Assembly: GCA_964470055.1 (NCBI GenBank)
Contig: CAYXZZ010000001.1
Span: forward strand, 6,291 to 70,290
Reading direction: 5' to 3'
DNA length: 64,000 nucleotides
DNA from: an uncultured Mycoplasma sp.
GTDB taxonomy: Bacteria > Bacillota_I > Bacilli_A > RF39 > UBA660
A model generated the notes under the pieces. That model did no database searches and was not told the DNA's origin. It saw only the letters and a program-made list of their open reading frames with translations. This document shows positions 1,653 to 8,244 of the stretch, one piece after another (the stretch's first letter is position 1; the number at the start of each line of letters is the position of its first letter). Both the position numbers and the translations under genes were made by a program.

Positions 1653-3074
1653 ATGAAGAAAATAGGATATTATGTACTAAATATAATTGGTTTTTCTATA
1701 TTCTTTGCTTCATTCTGGGCATTAGACACATATGGAAACTTTAGTGGAGATGAACTTTTCTTTCACTTATTAGTTCCATTAGGAGGAATCAGTCTTCAAA
1801 GTTTCTCCAATCTCGCAACGCAAGTCTTTCTTCCAGGAATAATAATTGGAAGTCTAGCCTCATTTTTAATAATAAAATTCATTTCAAAAAAACGATTATT
1901 AACAAATGTATTACTATTTATAATACTCTTATTACTAGGCTTAAATAATATTCATATGTTTTCCTACATAAGTGATCAAATAAATTCCTCTACATTTATA
2001 GAAGAAAACTATGTAGAAACTAACAAAGTTGAAATAACTTTCCCAACTAAAAAACAAAATTTGATTTATATCTTCCTAGAATCAATGGAAAATACCTATT
2101 CAAATAAGAAAAATGGTGGCCAACAAAAAGAAAATCTCATTCCAAATCTAACAAAAATCGCTAAAGAAAATATTAGTTTTTCCAACACTGAAAAATTAGG
2201 TGGAGCCCTAACCTTAAACGGAACTGCTTGGACATCAGCCGCCATGGTAGGGCAAACAAGTGGTCTTCCTCTAAAAATCAACACAAGCAGTAATGGAATA
2301 ATCGATTTATACAACTTTTTTCCTACTACAACAACTTTAGGAGATATTCTTGAAGAAAATGGTTACCACAACTATCTATTATTAGGGTCTGATTCCAACT
2401 ATGGTTGTCGTAAACATTATTTTTCTAAACACGGTAATTATACAATATATGATCTCAATACAGCCATCGAAGAAAATGCTATGAAAAAAGAAGACATCGT
2501 TTGGTGGGGATTTGATGATGAGGATTTGTATTCCAAAGCAAAAAAGCAATTAACAGAAATATCCGCAAAAGACGAACCATTTAATTTTACAATGTTGACA
2601 GTTGATACGCATTTTGAAGATGGCTATTTAGACGAAACTTGTGAAAATAAATATGATGATAAGTATTCAAATGTAATAAATTGTGCCGATACAAAAATTG
2701 CTGAATTCCTTTCATGGCTAGAAGAACAAGATTTTTATGACACTACAACAATAATTATAGTTGGAGATCATCTAAGCATGGATACAGATTATTTTGATAA
2801 ATCCGAAAATTATACCAGAACAACATACAACGTAATAATCAATTCACTTGTTACAACAGCAAATACAACAAATAGACAATTTACATCATTGGATCTTTTT
2901 CCAACGACATTAGTCGCCTTAGGAGCAGAAATAGAAAATGATCGCTTAGCCCTAGGAACCAATCTTTTCTCAGACAAAGAAACTTTAGTTGAGGAAAATG
3001 GGTATGAATACGTTTTCACTGAACTAAATAAACGCTCAACCTTTTACAATAATAACGTTTTAGCATACAAATAA
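1653..3074 (+). CDS. LTA-synthase/sulfatase-family membrane-anchored protein
   Basis: Two or three N-terminal TM helices, then an extracellular domain with sulfatase/LtaS-like blocks ('IYIFLESMENTY', 'TVDTHFEDGY', 'IIIVGDHL'). Confidence 0.55.
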   Translation: MKKIGYYVLNIIGFSIFFASFWALDTYGNFSGDELFFHLLVPLGGISLQSFSNLATQVFLPGIIIGSLASFLIIKFISKKRLLTNVLLFIILLLLGLNNIHMFSYISDQINSSTFIEENYVETNKVEITFPTKKQNLIYIFLESMENTYSNKKNGGQQKENLIPNLTKIAKENISFSNTEKLGGALTLNGTAWTSAAMVGQTSGLPLKINTSSNGIIDLYNFFPTTTTLGDILEENGYHNYLLLGSDSNYGCRKHYFSKHGNYTIYDLNTAIEENAMKKEDIVWWGFDDEDLYSKAKKQLTEISAKDEPFNFTMLTVDTHFEDGYLDETCENKYDDKYSNVINCADTKIAEFLSWLEEQDFYDTTTIIIVGDHLSMDTDYFDKSENYTRTTYNVIINSLVTTANTTNRQFTSLDLFPTTLVALGAEIENDRLALGTNLFSDKETLVEENGYEYVFTELNKRSTFYNNNVLAYK

Positions 3075-3095
3075 AACTAACATAAAGGAGGACCT

Positions 3096-3836
3096 ATGGA
3101 ATACATAGTTGATTTTAAACCATACATAAAAGAAAATATTGACATATCTTATTATTCTACAATCGAAGAAAAAATCTCTTCTAATAAAAGCATAACTCAA
3201 GCTGAAGCAGAGAACTTTCTACAAACCATAAGTTATATTATTAGAAAAACTATTAATCCAAATATGGATAATTTTGATTATAAATGTGACTTGGCTCAAA
3301 GTATTTTAGGAAATTATTTAGAAAAAATAAATTGTAAGTATGCACCTTGTGCTACCCAAAACGTAATTACAGCCGGAGTAGAAGGACACAGTTTTACAAC
3401 CGTTATGTTAAATGTTGAAGGCGAAGAAAAAACATACTTAGTAGATCCAACCTACATTCAGTTTTTTCATAAAGATAAATGTCAACTATCCAATTATTTT
3501 ATTTCACCACTATATCCCGATAGGATATTATTAACACCAAATCCAGGTTTCTTTATTCGCCGAGAAGATCAAGAAGCATCAGAATTTCTACTTAAATATG
3601 GTTATATTGAATTAACAGAAGAATATGCACGGATGTATGGAGATAGTTTTTTGAATACTAAAACAGGTGAAAATCCAAACAATTTAGAATTCAAAACAAT
3701 TCCAGGTAGTGTTTATCAAAATGCTTTTACCAAAGGAAGAGAATCTCTATCAAAAACAGATAGTGAATTAACATTAGAAGAAAAAAATATTACACCATTC
3801 CAAGAACTTTCCAAAACATCTCAAAAAGTAATATAA
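3096..3836 (+). CDS. Transglutaminase-like (papain-fold) cysteine peptidase domain protein
   Basis: A Cys...His...Asp-Pro-Thr arrangement: 'KCDLAQS', 'GHSFTTV', 'YLVDPTY' (the fDPT motif typical of transglutaminase-like cores). No signal peptide. Confidence 0.45.
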   Translation: MEYIVDFKPYIKENIDISYYSTIEEKISSNKSITQAEAENFLQTISYIIRKTINPNMDNFDYKCDLAQSILGNYLEKINCKYAPCATQNVITAGVEGHSFTTVMLNVEGEEKTYLVDPTYIQFFHKDKCQLSNYFISPLYPDRILLTPNPGFFIRREDQEASEFLLKYGYIELTEEYARMYGDSFLNTKTGENPNNLEFKTIPGSVYQNAFTKGRESLSKTDSELTLEEKNITPFQELSKTSQKVI

Positions 3837-3879
3837 GCAATCTACTTTACACTGATTTGACAAATGAGCCAACATATGT

Positions 3880-4175
3880 TATAATTAAGGAGCATTGATG
3901 AGGAAAAGTACCTTTAATGCTTATAACAGTGAGTTGGGTATAGTGTGAACCAATTATAAGTGTATTGAGAAAGAACACCTCGGAGCAAACTACCGAAAAG
4001 AGAAATCTTAGTAGACTAGTTCGGAAAGCAATCCGTTATCACATTGCTATGCTTGTTAGAGCAGAAAAAGAGATTACTGAATTAAAAGTTAGTATAACTT
4101 TAGTAATAAATTAAGGTGGCACCGCGGATACCCGTATTCGTCCTTATTTGTAGGATGATACGGGTATTTTTATTT
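3880..4175 (+). promoter_or_regulatory. T-box riboswitch leader with terminator hairpin
   Basis: The conserved T-box sequence 'AATTAAGGTGGCACCGCGG' lies at 4109-4127, immediately 5' of a terminator hairpin (atacccgtat 4128-4137 / atacgggtat 4158-4167, then TTTTT). There is a GA-rich K-turn-like start ('ttgatgagg'). A candidate specifier 'GAAAG-AAC-A' at 3969-3977 would be Asn (AAC), and the UGGC discriminator pairing is compatible with G73. Confidence 0.7.
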
Positions 4176-4197
4176 ACAAAAATAAGGAGGTGACACA

Positions 4198-5049
4198 ATG
4201 AGTAAATTCTTTAAAGAAGAACCAGTAACAACTTTTCCACTAAGTGAATACTTAATCAAAGATAAAGATGAATTTAAAGGATGTATTTTTGATGAAGAAT
4301 CAAGACAACGTAGAACAAAATACATAATGAGCATTTTAGGAGATATTTCATTAGAAAAAGACACATACGAATTATTTATGCGTCAGTTTCAAAGTTTTGG
4401 TGGCAAGTATGATGTTAGAACCAAAAAAGAAACAATCAAAGGTATGTATGATATTTCCAAAAGATATCCCAAGTTAACCTCTTCCGCACTTGAAGAGATT
4501 TGGTTCACTTATATTAAAGACTTATTTGAAGAGTATGCTTTAACTGACATGTTAGAAAAATATCTTGATATTCATGGACAGACAGATGATGCGATTAAAG
4601 CCTACTTAGATTTTGTTGAAACAAAAGCAGTTGAGTTTGAAAAAACATTTAAAGAAGCATCAAAAGAATTAGAGTGCTACAAAGAAGAATATGGAGAAAG
4701 AGTTGTTTCTCATTTACAACATATAATGCAAAGACAGCATATATCTTTAGAACAAATAATAGCCTCTCTTCCAAGTAGTGAATTAATAAAAAAAGATCAA
4801 GAACAACTAAGCGAACTTTCTAAAAAAACCAGAATTTATATGGGCGTTTGTCTTCCACTAAGTCAACAAATGATAGAAAGTTTAGCAACAGGAGAATCAC
4901 TAGATTACTATCCAGAACAACCATCTTATGTAATTAATGGTACATCAAAAGTTGACGCAACATTTACCAAACAACAATTTTTAGATAGTGTCCAAAAGCA
5001 ACAAAAAACTACTGAAGATGCAAGTCCAAAACAATTAAAAAAAATATAA
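4198..5049 (+). CDS. Hypothetical cytoplasmic protein, the first gene after the T-box leader
   Basis: A perfect SD (AAGGAGGTGA) sits 7 nt upstream of the ATG. 283 aa, predicted all-helical, no recognisable motif, no TM. Confidence 0.6.
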   Translation: MSKFFKEEPVTTFPLSEYLIKDKDEFKGCIFDEESRQRRTKYIMSILGDISLEKDTYELFMRQFQSFGGKYDVRTKKETIKGMYDISKRYPKLTSSALEEIWFTYIKDLFEEYALTDMLEKYLDIHGQTDDAIKAYLDFVETKAVEFEKTFKEASKELECYKEEYGERVVSHLQHIMQRQHISLEQIIASLPSSELIKKDQEQLSELSKKTRIYMGVCLPLSQQMIESLATGESLDYYPEQPSYVINGTSKVDATFTKQQFLDSVQKQQKTTEDASPKQLKKI

Positions 5050-5062
5050 GGAAGTGATAATT

Positions 5063-5098
5063 ATGTCAGACGACAATAATAACAATAACGCTTCATAA
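5063..5098 (+). CDS. Putative leader peptide MSDDNNNNNAS (five consecutive Asn codons) upstream of asnA
   Basis: The ATG is preceded by GGAAGTGA. Codons AAT AAT AAC AAT AAC are followed by mutually exclusive inverted repeats (5093-5106 / 5124-5136 / 5140-5156). The ORF is only 11 codons and sits in AT-rich low-complexity sequence. Confidence 0.3.
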   Translation: MSDDNNNNNAS

Positions 5099-5224
5099 AA
5101 TAGATATTAAATTTCATTTTAAGTCTATTTTATGAATGCAAATAAAATAGATATCCCTACAAATATCTTAGTTTATTTAAAAGTAAAAACATAATCAATT
5201 AAATTAAGAAAGAAGGAATTTAAA

Positions 5225-6193
5225 ATGAAAAAAAAATTAACATATTTTGAAACAATCACAATGATTGCAGAAACAAAAAAATATTTTGAAAGTCAATTAG
5301 AAACAAGACTAAGTTTAACAAAAGTACCTAGCCCATTATTTGTAAAAACATCATCAGGATTACAAGATGGACTAACAGGAGTAGAAAAAGCCGTAGGTTT
5401 TACCAAAGGAAAAGAACGATTTGAAATAGTTCACTCTCTTGCCAAATGGAAAAGAGAAGCCTTAGGAAAATATAGTTTTCCAACTCATACAGGATTATAT
5501 ACAGATATGAAAGCAATTAGAAAACAAGAAACAGTCGATGAAGTTCATTCTTTATTTGTAGAACAATGGGATTGGGAAAAAGTCATTACTAAAGATGATC
5601 GTACAATTGATTATTTAAAAGACACAGTCAAATCAATTTATAAGGCTATTAGACAAACATCAGTTTATTTAAAAACAAAATATCGTTTTTTAACTTTAGA
5701 GTTGCCAAAAACAATCACCTTTATTACTTCTCAAGAACTAGAAGATATGTATCCAGATAAAACTCCCAAAGAAAGAGAAGACATATACACTAAAGAGAAA
5801 AAAGCCGTATTTATTATCGGTATTGGTGATAAGTTAAAATCAGGAATTGAGCACGACTTAAGAAGTCCAGACTATGATGATTGGTCATTAGATGGAGACT
5901 TGCTTGTCTATGACAAAATAATTGATAAAGCAATCGAACTTTCCTCAATGGGAATTAGAGTAGATGAACGATCATTAATTAAACAACTAGAAAAATCTAC
6001 CGCATTAGATAGATTAGAACTTCCATATCATCAAAAAATCATCAAAAAAGAACTTCCATATACAATTGGTGGTGGAATAGGACAATCAAGAATTCTAATG
6101 CTTCTTCTTGAAAAAAACCATATTGCCGAAGTTCAAGCATCTAGTTGGGAAGAAAAAACTTTAAAAGAACTAAAAGACTTAAAACTATTATAA
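5225..6193 (+). CDS. asnA: Aspartate--ammonia ligase (asparagine synthetase A)
   Basis: Strong similarity to E. coli AsnA blocks: 'VHSLAKWKREALG', 'EQWDWEKV', 'RSPDYDDWS', 'SSMGIRVD', 'TIGGGIGQSR'. 322 aa. Confidence 0.9.
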   Translation: MKKKLTYFETITMIAETKKYFESQLETRLSLTKVPSPLFVKTSSGLQDGLTGVEKAVGFTKGKERFEIVHSLAKWKREALGKYSFPTHTGLYTDMKAIRKQETVDEVHSLFVEQWDWEKVITKDDRTIDYLKDTVKSIYKAIRQTSVYLKTKYRFLTLELPKTITFITSQELEDMYPDKTPKEREDIYTKEKKAVFIIGIGDKLKSGIEHDLRSPDYDDWSLDGDLLVYDKIIDKAIELSSMGIRVDERSLIKQLEKSTALDRLELPYHQKIIKKELPYTIGGGIGQSRILMLLLEKNHIAEVQASSWEEKTLKELKDLKLL

Positions 6194-6222
6194 TTTTTAT
6201 AAACACAAAACTCACACACAAT

Positions 6223-6250
6223 AAGGGATCAAATAGATCTCTTTTCTTTT
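6223..6250 (+). terminator. Rho-independent terminator after asnA
   Basis: Stem 'aagggatc'/'gatctctt' (one G-U pair) with loop 'aaata', followed by TTCTTTT. Confidence 0.5.
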
Positions 6251-6443
6251 GCATTAAATAATATCTATTAAACCTAAATAAAAACACAATTATACGAACT
6301 AAAAAGGCAAATCAGCCATAGCCGCAAAAATTAAATAACCCAATAAAAACAGCAGTAAAAATATCAAAGAAATAAAATACAGTAAAAAGAAATCTTTTCT
6401 TCCTAACAATTTATGATATAATTAAAAAAAATAGAGGTGACAT

Positions 6444-7547
6444 ATGGTAACAGAAATAACTAGTAAACAAGAATTATTATCATTAGCAGAACAAGTAGAA
6501 AAAGAAGTAACAAATTTAAAAACGGCCATCGATAGTATGAAAGCAACTCTAAGTGGCATTCCAAATTACGACGGAATAGATGCATCTAGTGCTGCCAATA
6601 TTCTAAGCAGTAACTTAACAAGTATTGCTACCGATGCTGAAACAGCCGCTAAAAATATTAAAAGTTACGCAACAGAAATTAATAATTTTGATGTAGACGA
6701 CTTAACAGCCGAAGCAGAAAATGAAACAGAAACAACACTACCAGAAACAGAGACTACAGTATCTCCTAGTGTAACAACCGGAACAACTCCCCAAACAGAA
6801 ATAACAACACAATCTACAACAACATCAACTACAACAAGTGGTAACTATTATTCTCCAAGTACTTCAACAAGCACTAATACAAATACAAGCACCAACACTA
6901 ACACAAATACAAGTGCTAGTACAATAATAGGTACCGGTGCAAGTGGTATTATCTCTGGAGTTACAAACAATTCATCAAACAATAACACATCAAACAACAC
7001 GTCAAATAACTCATCAGTATCAACTGGAACAGTTCAAACAACTGGACAAACTTCATCAAACGGAAGAACTCAACGCTCAGCATTAACTGATATAGTTATC
7101 ACAGAAGGAGATCCAGATATTGACATAAGTAGATACAGCAACAATCTTGCCAATGGTTTTGAAGTAACTACCGGTAACTTAGCATACGAATTATGCGACG
7201 AAGATGTTGATTTGTTATGTGCAATCGTATCAGCAGAAAGTGATAAGTCTTATGATGATGCCTTAGCAGTAATTACAACTATTCTTAATAGATGTGAGAC
7301 ATCTAACTGGATAACTGCCCACGGTCGCGATCCTATTGCTCAAGCAACAGCAGCCAACCAATTTGTTGTTTATCAACATGGTAGTTATGAAGGATACTTA
7401 AACGGTAACGCCCCAGAAACAGTTGTTCAAGCAGTAAAAGATGCCCTAGCCGGAGTTAGAAACCATAACTATTGCAGTTTTAGGTCAAATGGTTCAACAT
7501 CATACAGTAGTAACATGATTACAGCAACAGGTAATAGATATAAATAA
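6444..7547 (+). CDS. Secreted-effector-like protein: helical N-terminal domain, Thr/Ser-rich linker and C-terminal SleB-type cell-wall hydrolase (Hydrolase_2) domain
   Basis: No Sec signal peptide. A helical N-terminal ~90 aa is followed by ~120 aa of T/S/N low complexity. The C-terminus 'LLCAIVSAESDKSYDDALAVITTILNR...QFVVYQHGSY' matches the SleB/CwlJ cell-wall-hydrolase family pattern. Confidence 0.55.
   Translation: MVTEITSKQELLSLAEQVEKEVTNLKTAIDSMKATLSGIPNYDGIDASSAANILSSNLTSIATDAETAAKNIKSYATEINNFDVDDLTAEAENETETTLPETETTVSPSVTTGTTPQTEITTQSTTTSTTTSGNYYSPSTSTSTNTNTSTNTNTNTSASTIIGTGASGIISGVTNNSSNNNTSNNTSNNSSVSTGTVQTTGQTSSNGRTQRSALTDIVITEGDPDIDISRYSNNLANGFEVTTGNLAYELCDEDVDLLCAIVSAESDKSYDDALAVITTILNRCETSNWITAHGRDPIAQATAANQFVVYQHGSYEGYLNGNAPETVVQAVKDALAGVRNHNYCSFRSNGSTSYSSNMITATGNRYK
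6720..7090 (+). repeat. Low-complexity Thr/Ser/Asn-rich linker with short tandem DNA repeats inside the 6444..7547 CDS
   Basis: TNTNTS-type repeats at protein level and 'acaaatacaagcaccaacactaacacaaatacaagt' at DNA level. This region is prone to length variation. Confidence 0.5.
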
Positions 7548-7631
7548 TGTAAAATTATGTAATATTTCACAAAAAAAACAAACTAGATATTTTTTAATGA
7601 TATAATGAAGAAAATAAAGGAGGAATAAAAA

Positions 7632-7943
7632 ATGAGTATAACAAGTCATGACACAACTCAAATGAGAGATTGGTCAACTACTATGGACAACAATGCCAAC
7701 GACTATGATTCATTAATCAATAGACTATATGTTTTAATTGATTCATTTGTTGGTTCAGAACAATTCAAAGGAGGTTTATCTACAGACTTTGGTGAAAAAG
7801 TATTAAGTCAAAGATCAACTTTTATGAGATATTCAGATACATTTAGAGAGTGTTCCGAATTAATTTCTAGAAGAGCAGCTTCTATTGATAGTGATGAAGA
7901 GGAATTAAAAGCAAGAATCGGAAGACAAAATCCATTAGATTAA
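7632..7943 (+). CDS. Small helical protein (~100 aa), WXG100/T7SS-accessory-like
   Basis: 103 aa, no signal peptide. It is the first gene of a tightly packed five-gene operon, with a 'tgatataat' -10 element and an AAGGAGG SD upstream. Its size and helical character fit T7SS small-partner families. Confidence 0.35.
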   Translation: MSITSHDTTQMRDWSTTMDNNANDYDSLINRLYVLIDSFVGSEQFKGGLSTDFGEKVLSQRSTFMRYSDTFRECSELISRRAASIDSDEEELKARIGRQNPLD

Positions 7944-7962
7944 TTGAAAGGAAGGTTAGATT

Positions 7963-8244
7963 ATGGCAAACGGAATATCAGTAATGAACACCGCTGAAGC
8001 AAGAGCAAAAGCGAGTGAAATGAAAACAATAGCACATGACCTAGAGTCATTATTAAATGATGTATCAAAAAAAATAGAAGAAATTGATAATGTTGATACA
8101 GGTATATATCAAGGTAATAATAAACCTGCTGAACTAAGAGCAGAATTAGATTCATTTAGACAAATATTTAATTTAGCATATGATCAAATAATTAAATCAG
8201 CAGATGATATTACTCTAATTGCAAATACAATGGACCAAGAATAA
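7963..8244 (+). CDS. WXG100 (ESAT-6/EsxA)-like protein
   Basis: 93 aa. The N-terminus 'ISVMNTAEARAKASEM' resembles the EsxA start ('IKMSPEEIRAKSQ'). A central 'YQGNNKPAEL' lies at the WXG position. Confidence 0.5.
   Translation: MANGISVMNTAEARAKASEMKTIAHDLESLLNDVSKKIEEIDNVDTGIYQGNNKPAELRAELDSFRQIFNLAYDQIIKSADDITLIANTMDQE

Follow-up and report, generated by a model that had tools for sequence, protein, structure and literature searches.

A 64-kb stretch of DNA from an uncultured Mycoplasma sp. of the RF39 lineage (contig CAYXZZ010000001.1 of assembly GCA_964470055.1; all 64,000 nucleotides (nt) are referred to as the window in the following) harbors, upstream of the aspartate-ammonia ligase gene asnA, a short open reading frame (ORF) with five consecutive asparagine (Asn) codons and, overlapping its end, a series of five RNA segments capable of alternative pairing. 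With high confidence, this arrangement represents a ribosome-dependent switch that senses Asn. In its particulars, including the polarity, the switch is probably a five-segment translational attenuator, in which the position of the ribosome on the leader would determine whether the Shine-Dalgarno sequence (SD) and the start codon of asnA are accessible. The module lies in front of asnA and behind an Asn-specific T-box (specifier AAC), which agrees with the preliminary description of this DNA, where a second Asn-sensing layer beside the T-box had been proposed.

A conserved leader ORF with a run of Asn codons

The mini-ORF consists of an ATG start, the codons TCA GAC GAC, the Asn run AAT AAT AAC AAT AAC, the codons GCT TCA and a TAA stop, and is preceded by a strong SD (Table 1). 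Its coordinates and sequences had been given correctly in the preliminary description, and the ORF with its SD and five Asn codons is a real feature that is not due to chance. In the window, the leader run is the sole stretch of at least four AAY codons on either strand. Among 48 related loci, the 330-nt zones upstream of asnA contain 21 AAY runs of at least four codons and 16 of at least five, and the sequence outside the leader zones (871 kb, both strands) contains 14 and none, respectively. AAT/AAC runs of this length, which might have been commonplace in such DNA, are hence rare in the window as well as in the 871 kb of related loci.

A scan of one genome per species yielded 80 asnA loci, the 47 closest of which have an asnA 66-92% identical to that of the window. 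These 47 loci stem from metagenome-assembled genomes (MAGs) labelled Bacilli, 'Tenericutes', Erysipelotrichaceae or Clostridium sp. CAG:710, a group which we take to be RF39-like gut Bacilli. Conservation in relatives, to which the preliminary description had pointed as a check, is evident: about 30 of the 47 loci contain, upstream of asnA, a short SD-preceded ORF that includes an Asn run, for instance MSDDNNNNNNLKIICIK, MLDDNNNNNVKTNFA, MKEDNNSNNNNNKS or MESENDNNNDNNHKT, and the hairpin region is likewise conserved in relatives. The leader peptides vary in sequence and length (8-24 amino acids) and comprise Asn runs of 2-9 residues, the constant features being the SD, the start codon, one or two acidic residues and the Asn run. 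Throughout the 29 tabulated leaders an ATG or TTG start and an SD are kept, with GGAAGTGAT-like SDs before the start. Moreover, the Asn run varies at the third codon position only (106 T and 29 C), a signature of selection on the codons and thus on translation. In nearly all leaders (window and 28 relatives) the Asn run is directly preceded by Asp or Glu, as in MSDD-N, MSED-N or MEDD-N; Asp is the substrate of AsnA, and its GAY codons are one base away from AAY.

Roughly half of the loci have the T-box about 1.05-1.1 kb upstream and a homologue of ORF283, an orphan of 283 amino acids, between T-box and leader. In the remaining loci the leader directly follows the T-box terminator (L017, L019, L027, L035, L036 and L038). 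Since the leader is thus found with and without ORF283, it constitutes a separable module set between the Asn T-box and asnA. Searches of the Rfam database over positions 4000-6600 at E values up to 10 returned only noise for the leader region (Yar_1, 14 bits) and a ctRNA match on the asnA terminator, and an Rfam search on six relatives detected T-boxes and tRNAs only and no family for the leader element.

Alternative RNA folds and ribosome position

Around the end of the leader ORF, there are two copies of the 11-mer ATAAAATAGAT (5095-5105 and 5142-5152), between which its reverse complement lies with one mismatch (5123-5133). A single copy of this 11-mer is not unusual, as the window contains 13 matches with at most one mismatch against 12.8 expected; it is the clustered arrangement and its conservation that stand out. 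The fold of the region 5050-5230 has a z-score of -4.33, and none of 200 shuffled sequences was equally stable.

The pairing of the segments was followed across 24 related loci, and the percentages given here denote the share of cells that are paired. Helix 1:2 (5090-5105 with 5123-5139) is 96% paired; several single changes give G.U pairs, and compensations comprise C-G to U-A and A-U to G-C exchanges, in four loci each, as well as a third covarying outer pair. Helix 2:3 (5123-5133 with 5142-5152) is 98.8% paired, and in four loci A-to-G changes in both segments 1 and 3 go along with a T-to-C change in segment 2. All three segments are thus present and both helices conserved, as expected from the earlier proposal of mutually exclusive 1:2 and 2:3 pairing. 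Helix 3:4 arises from AGAUAU (5149-5154) and AUAUCU (5163-5168), corresponding to a weak hairpin of the form AGATAT-CCCTACAA-ATATCT at 5149-5168, is 98% paired with G.U variants, and may be extended by AAAUAAA (5140-5146) with UUUAUUU (5172-5178). Helix 4:5, formed by UCUUAGUUUA (5166-5175) and UAAAUUAAGA (5200-5209), is 90% paired and abuts or overlaps the extended SD of asnA, AAGAAAGAAGG. In addition, both hairpin loops have partners at the start of asnA, in pairings not noted in the preliminary description: the loop of hairpin 1:2, UUUCAUUUUAA, pairs with UUAAAAUGAAA at 5220-5230, which includes the asnA AUG (87% paired, and present in the minimum free energy (MFE) structure of the window), and its variants UUCGUUUU retain this pairing through G.U. 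The CCUAC of the 3:4 loop, whose CCTACA is invariant in alignment A1, pairs in predicted folds with GAAGG, the core of the SD, apart from a single A.A mismatch.

The same repeats bear on a reading without any sensor, in which the mini-ORF would be a coupling or standby ORF handing ribosomes on from ORF283 to asnA, or encode a functional micropeptide, and the repeats would be DNA sites such as an operator. The overlap of the leader SD with the ORF283 stop could be taken that way, as could the layout of segments 1 and 3 as direct repeats with segment 2 as an inverted copy, which resembles a repeated protein-binding site. The leader is, however, equally present without ORF283, directly after the T-box terminator (L017, L019, L027 and L035), its peptide is conserved only in the Asn run and the preceding acidic residues, and the 126 nt between its stop and the asnA ATG are too many for coupling by termination-reinitiation. 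No promoter-like site was detected in 5050-5224, and where changes in the helices lack compensation, most are A-to-G or C-to-U on the transcribed strand, which is compatible with G.U pairing and hence an RNA rather than a DNA signature; on this ground the operator reading of the repeats was rejected. Overall, the absence of a sensor appears very improbable.

Because neighbouring helices share bases, only two consistent sets of pairings exist: state A comprises 1:2 and 3:4, and state B comprises 2:3, 4:5, the pairing of the 1:2 loop with the AUG and that of CCU with AGG. The loops of state A are thus the sequestering elements of state B, which explains the conservation of their sequences. An unguided RNAalifold prediction on the alignment yields state A, and single-sequence MFE structures of the window and the inspected relatives yield state B. 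When either state is enforced, the 21 nt that span SD and AUG are unpaired to 0.86 on average with state A and to 0.32 with 2:3 (state B), and access is higher in state A in 24 of 24 loci (Wilcoxon p 1e-7, a value that overstates independence, the loci being related). To represent a ribosome on the leader stop, RNA up to 12 nt past the stop was removed before folding; under this constraint the mean probability is 0.87 for the CCU:SD pairing, with 23 of 24 loci above 0.5, and 0.91 for the pairing of the AUG with the 1:2 loop, with 22 of 24 above 0.5, the two exceptions to the latter, L011 and L029, having a divergent or missing UUCAUUUU loop motif.

These folds are connected to the leader ORF by its geometry. 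Relative to the base at which the switch arm begins, the leader stop starts at -6 to +8 nt (median +3, 29 leaders); the median distance by which the Asn codons lie upstream of this arm is 22 nt for the first (11-58) and 9 nt for the last (5-35). In general, a ribosome keeps roughly 9-13 nt past its A-site codon single-stranded, as known from toeprinting and helicase studies. With the stop inside or near segment 1 and the Asn codons upstream of it, a ribosome terminating on the leader covers segment 1, while one at the first Asn codons leaves it unmasked.

From these features we infer that the leader is translated, that ribosomes stall on its Asn codons when charged tRNA is short, and that the switch has the following polarity. 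The T-box would set transcription of the operon (T-box, ORF283, leader and asnA), and the leader would then set the translation of asnA. In state A, the ON state, hairpins 1:2 and 3:4 would leave the SD and AUG of asnA single-stranded, while in state B, the OFF state, helices 2:3 and 4:5, the pairing of UUCAUUUU with the asnA start AAAAUGAA and that of CCUAC with GAAGG would bury both. Helix 1:2 emerges first in transcription and is the stronger of the two locally (-14.0 kcal/mol against -9.2 for 2:3 in the window), besides being longer than 2:3 in most of the 24 loci; state A is therefore expected to persist unless a ribosome opens segment 1. With plentiful Asn-tRNA, the ribosome would reach the stop in segment 1 and melt 1:2, allowing formation of the globally more stable state B, which is favored by about 4 kcal/mol on average over the loci. 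With scarce Asn-tRNA, the ribosome would stall upstream of segment 1, so that state A would stay and asnA would be translated, and an untranslated leader would likewise be ON by default. This polarity agrees with that of the upstream T-box, which switches the operon on when tRNA-Asn is uncharged.

Several relatives carry reduced forms of the module. Seven to eight loci (L031, L034, L036, L038 and L040-L042) lack segments 1 and 2 and place the leader stop 2-6 nt upstream of the arm of hairpin 3:4; these minimal variants fit the same logic with one toggle fewer. In L018 and L020 the leader has decayed and the hairpins are retained, which would be tolerable if the default is ON. Hairpin 3:4 with its loop motif, segment 5 and the extended SD also occur without any Asn leader (L008, L037, L043-L046 and L162), hairpin 3:4 then lying directly downstream of the stop of the ORF283 homologue or of the T-box terminator. 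The hairpin module therefore seems to be older than, or independent of, the leader.

The preliminary description had considered the element a classical ribosome-stalling attenuator that includes a weak hairpin and a U-rich tract. In such a trp/his-type device, helix 3:4 with the U-rich tract would terminate transcription when Asn is plentiful, and stalling would favor 2:3 as the antiterminator. The cognate-codon leader, the overlapping helices 1:2, 2:3 and 3:4 as in trpL, the U at seven of the ten bases after the inner stem, and the vicinity of the last Asn codons to segment 1 in the clade of the window all accord with it. On the contrary, hairpin 3:4 contains one G-C pair and is weak (-2.2 kcal/mol, or -4.5 when extended), and no free U-run follows the extended stem. 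The hairpin itself thus holds, but not the free U tail, whose bases pair elsewhere, namely, depending on the state, with AAAUAAA of segment 3 or with the nucleotides immediately upstream of the asnA SD, in segment 5. No terminator-like site was found by the terminator scan within 5050-5224, while the genuine terminators of the same operon reach -15.0 (T-box) and -7.9 kcal/mol (asnA) with clean T-runs. Furthermore, the Asn codons lie upstream of segment 1 and not inside it, which makes the geometry the reverse of trp/his; in many relatives the Asn run even ends 15-35 nt before segment 1, so that stalling cannot mask it. Stalling would instead favor 1:2 together with 3:4, and hence termination under starvation, which is the wrong polarity, and L018 and L020 would be locked OFF. 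On energy, the missing U-run and geometry, hairpin 3:4 was rejected as a terminator, and an attenuator of the trp/his type is unlikely.

The translational attenuator has weaknesses of its own. Its hosts are uncultured MAGs, and the case is built on sequence and in-silico folding. Covariation is limited because the elements are highly conserved, amounting to two or three truly compensated positions which are shared by related sequences. Helix 4:5, the CCU:AGG pairing and the loop:AUG pairing are short and A/U-rich and are supported by pairing potential rather than compensation; helix 4:5 in particular does not exceed the shuffle control, its support being conserved pairing potential. The anti-SD role leaves the invariance of ACAA in the 3:4 loop unexplained. 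The margin of state B is only the 4 kcal/mol mentioned above, and state B is not more stable in the window itself. In the clade of the window the last two Asn codons are only 5-8 nt away from segment 1, and a ribosome stalled there would partly invade 1:2, while in L038 the hairpin immediately follows the Asn codons, so that stalling and termination become harder to tell apart. At equilibrium, a mask representing the stalled ribosome fails on its own to free the SD (0.37 against 0.30 unpaired); the ON state would therefore have to be kinetic, and the proposed model leans on this kinetic argument. Lastly, the same masking analysis applied to unrelated Asn leaders of Clostridia, described below, gave no clear accessibility pattern.

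The loop of hairpin 3:4, the T-box and the operon

The sequence UUGUAGG at 4148-4154, in the loop and 3' arm of the T-box terminator, is exactly complementary to CCUACAA at 5156-5162 in the loop of hairpin 3:4, and is single-stranded only with the antiterminator formed. Among L001-L047, UGUAGG is kept in all 41 hairpin-bearing relatives with a visible T-box, but lost in three of the four hairpin-less T-box loci, which occupy four separate places on the asnA tree; the hypergeometric probability of this co-occurrence is about 3e-4 in a small sample. The loop variants of L036 and L046 are G.U-compatible with the UUGUAGG pairing. With the antiterminator held, UGUAGG:CCUACA pairing is predicted with probabilities of 0.4-0.99 in seven of eight loci with an adjacent T-box, and SD accessibility rises modestly in six of them. 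No further T-boxes were found in the flanks of the related loci.

It is conceivable, though rather unlikely, that the CCUACAA loop serves as a hub coupling the T-box to asnA translation. The antiterminated, tRNA-bound T-box would then free UUGUAGG, which would capture the anti-SD CCUACAA and permit translation, while refolding of the T-box into its terminator hairpin would silence the message. As a lead, the conformation of the T-box may also gate translation, across about 1 kb in the window. If this is true, a transcriptional T-box would at the same time be a long-range translational switch, integrated with the leader-peptide sensor on the same mRNA.

A related view, which overlaps with the translational attenuator and is compatible with it, regards hairpin 3:4 with its CCUACAA loop as the primary element, read in trans or over a long range, with the leader and segments 1 and 2 modulating its formation; its partner would be either the UUGUAGG of the T-box terminator region or a protein that binds RNA, for which ORF283 is a possibility. 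The hairpin with its SD context is indeed the most widespread part of the module, including the leaderless loci listed above, and the invariance of its loop extends past the bases required for an anti-SD. The complementarity to UUGUAGG, its retention in the hairpin-bearing relatives as opposed to its loss in most hairpin-less ones, and the pairing predicted for adjacent T-boxes speak for it as well. Yet no protein partner was identified, and many operons retain the hairpin but lack ORF283; in half of the loci about 1 kb with a translated ORF separates the T-box from the hairpin, pairing within the terminator already places a constraint on the AGG of UUGUAGG, and the hairpin-less sample amounts to only four loci. 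Moreover, a metagenome scan for the hairpin pattern, in which 77 of the 80 matches listed were chance hits from unrelated environments and three were real, found the hairpin only upstream of asnA and thus gave no indication of a wider regulon. Taken together, primacy of hairpin 3:4 is unlikely.

The elements are embedded in an operon whose order downstream of the promoter is T-box, ORF283, mini-ORF, asnA and terminator, within a window of 29% G+C. The promoter-like site upstream of the T-box is the sole match of its quality in the promoter scan of positions 3000-7000, no internal promoter between ORF283 and asnA reached the scan threshold, and no tRNA genes were found within the 64-kb window. 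The Asn specifier codon AAC of the T-box occupies 3974-3976, where the specifier loop reads GAAAG-AAC-A; the sequence GAAAGAACAC in this specifier region is also found in relatives.

Table 1. Features of the asnA operon and its leader, in window coordinates
Feature	Position	Strand	Remarks
Promoter-like site of the operon, TTGACA-17-TATAAT, TG-extended	3857..3885	+	12/12 consensus match; directly 5' of the T-box
Asn T-box leader	3886..4148	+	Rfam RF00230, 105.8 bits (gathering score 93), E 2e-22
T-box terminator, ATACCCGTAT...ATACGGGTAT then T-run	4128..4172	+	-15.0 kcal/mol
ORF283, 283 amino acids, orphan between T-box and leader	4198..5049	+	Stop codon (5047-5049) overlaps leader SD
Leader SD, AAGGAAGTGA	5048..5057	+	5 nt 5' of the leader ATG; overlaps ORF283 stop
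Leader ORF, MSDDNNNNNAS* (11 codons)	5063..5098	+	ATG 5063-5065, TAA 5096-5098
Five consecutive Asn codons, proposed sensor	5075..5089	+	AAT AAT AAC AAT AAC
Segment 1, 5' arm of helix 1:2	5090..5105	+	Holds leader stop 5096-5098
Loop of hairpin 1:2, UUUCAUUUUAA	5112..5122	+	Complementary to asnA start region 5220-5230
Segment 2	5123..5139	+	Partner of segment 1 or segment 3
Segment 3, AAAUAAAAUAGAUAU	5140..5154	+	Partner of segment 2 or segment 4
Loop of hairpin 3:4, CCCUACAA	5155..5162	+	CCUAC 5156-5160, proposed anti-SD in state B
Segment 4, AUAUCUUAGUUUAUUU	5163..5178	+	Partner of segment 3 or segment 5
Segment 5, UAAAUUAAGA	5200..5209	+	Overlaps 5' end of extended asnA SD
Extended asnA SD, AAGAAAGAAGG	5206..5216	+	Nearly invariant in relatives
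asnA, aspartate-ammonia ligase	5225..6193	+	Pfam AsnA, 1.9e-94
Intrinsic terminator of the operon	6223..6243	+	Terminator scan; -7.9 kcal/mol, then T-run

ORF283 has 89 homologues, all unnamed, and no Pfam family; its AlphaFold2 (AF2) model is confident and mostly helical with a pLDDT (predicted local distance difference test) of 88.6, and lacks a fold match in the Protein Data Bank (PDB; best E 0.2). Owing to its position between the Asn T-box and the leader, ORF283 is under control of the Asn T-box, and it represents a conserved orphan protein co-regulated with asparagine synthesis. On the other side of asnA, the stretch 6444-8244 encodes a 367-amino-acid protein with long Ser/Thr/Asn-rich low-complexity stretches and a weak match to a cell-wall hydrolase family (PF07486, 4e-4), followed by two small WXG100-like ORFs at 7632-7943 and 7963-8244.

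Relation to known leaders and significance

Amino-acid-specific leader peptides are textbook knowledge in Proteobacteria but have rarely been reported in Firmicutes-type bacteria, where T-boxes serve this purpose. The Asn leader is a variation on leader-peptide attenuation and not a categorically new mechanism. With trpL, hisL, leuL and pheL of Escherichia coli and the His leader located before hisS/hisZ in bacilli (PMC2965389) it shares a cognate-codon ORF followed by alternative helices, and the general traits of such attenuators are found in it, namely an ORF with an SD, cognate codons and mutually exclusive helices overlapping the end of the ORF. As in these amino-acid attenuators, the ribosome position would pick the fold, and reaching the stop would give the OFF state. 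Unlike them, the Asn leader lacks an intrinsic-terminator helix, its output being the predicted burial of a downstream SD and AUG, it comprises five segments instead of four, and its sensor codons are located upstream of segment 1, which a stalled ribosome thus leaves unmasked; when untranslated it is predicted to be ON and not super-attenuated. No Asn-codon or Asn-run leader for asnA was found in the full-text searchable literature. Before the His example of bacilli, amino-acid-specific leader peptides were unknown beyond Proteobacteria and Actinobacteria, and T-box and leader peptide have been described as replacing each other, not as acting in series (Naville and Gautheret, PMC2965389).

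In its output the Asn leader is closer to the ermC, cat and cmlA leaders, which likewise combine a leader ORF with alternative hairpins, one of them sequestering a downstream SD, have their fold remodelled by the position of the ribosome and leave transcription unchanged; in silico, the downstream SD and start are indeed sequestered in one fold of the Asn leader. In the erm/cat systems, however, the ribosome is arrested by the drug on segment 1 and thereby frees the SD, while on the Asn leader the stall would occur upstream and the terminating ribosome would mask segment 1. Accordingly, an arrest inside segment 1 is lacking, and the peptide is conserved only in its acidic residues and the Asn run. 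Moreover, the erm/cat signal consists of an antibiotic and the nascent peptide and is not specific for any amino acid, unlike the proposed signal of the Asn leader. In comparison with the T-box family (RF00230), both the variable (tRNA-Asn charging) and the regulated gene are the same, but the T-box binds uncharged tRNA while the leader would read decoding speed; the region 5050-5224 itself lacks T-box features and shows no RF00230 match even at E values up to 10.

A precedent for two sensors in one leader is provided by Salmonella. Complete translation of mgtL favors the OFF fold, and stalling favors the ON fold. The mgtA and mgtCBR leaders, with the Pro-codon ORFs mgtL and mgtP, are termed 'tandem attenuators' (PMC3641672), and they resemble the Asn leader in joining a short ORF that selects between stem-loops with a second, independent sensor. 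They differ in that their output is transcription elongation or termination, and in sensors, codons and phylum.

Other asnA loci feature different arrangements. Three Clostridia MAGs (L055, L063 and L065), with an asnA 59-61% identical, show an unrelated Asn-leader design about 520 nt upstream of asnA, in which a promoter is followed by a 27-amino-acid ORF with seven consecutive Asn codons (MFRVINNNNNNNLNAFNMGFIFVVEKI) and by two G+C-rich hairpins that resemble terminators and can in part exchange arms. Next comes another leader, MKKTNAVAGEDDNNNNKYLRRVFR, extending into a hairpin with a 3' arm, CUCCUU, that is the complement of the asnA SD. This design had no Rfam match. In Lachnospiraceae (L048-L053), asnA follows the end of a gene resembling class II aminoacyl-tRNA synthetases (..PFPRTV.NCEL*), and the spacer of L050, about 260 nt upstream of asnA, contains three tandem G+C-rich units of about 75 nt (..gcggcgaatgccgtagcc..cagcgaagctggtaag..).

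The asnA gene of the window would thus be subject to two sensors in series, the T-box reading uncharged tRNA-Asn at the level of transcription and the leader reading the charged supply by way of the ribosome. The leader switch appears to act on translation, and its geometry mirrors the classical one. If confirmed, it would represent a compact natural design, a default-ON sensor that is switched off by translation, as well as a test case for combining two RNA sensors of one signal, and it would constitute a cis-regulatory family to be annotated in many uncultured gut Bacilli represented by RF39-like MAGs.

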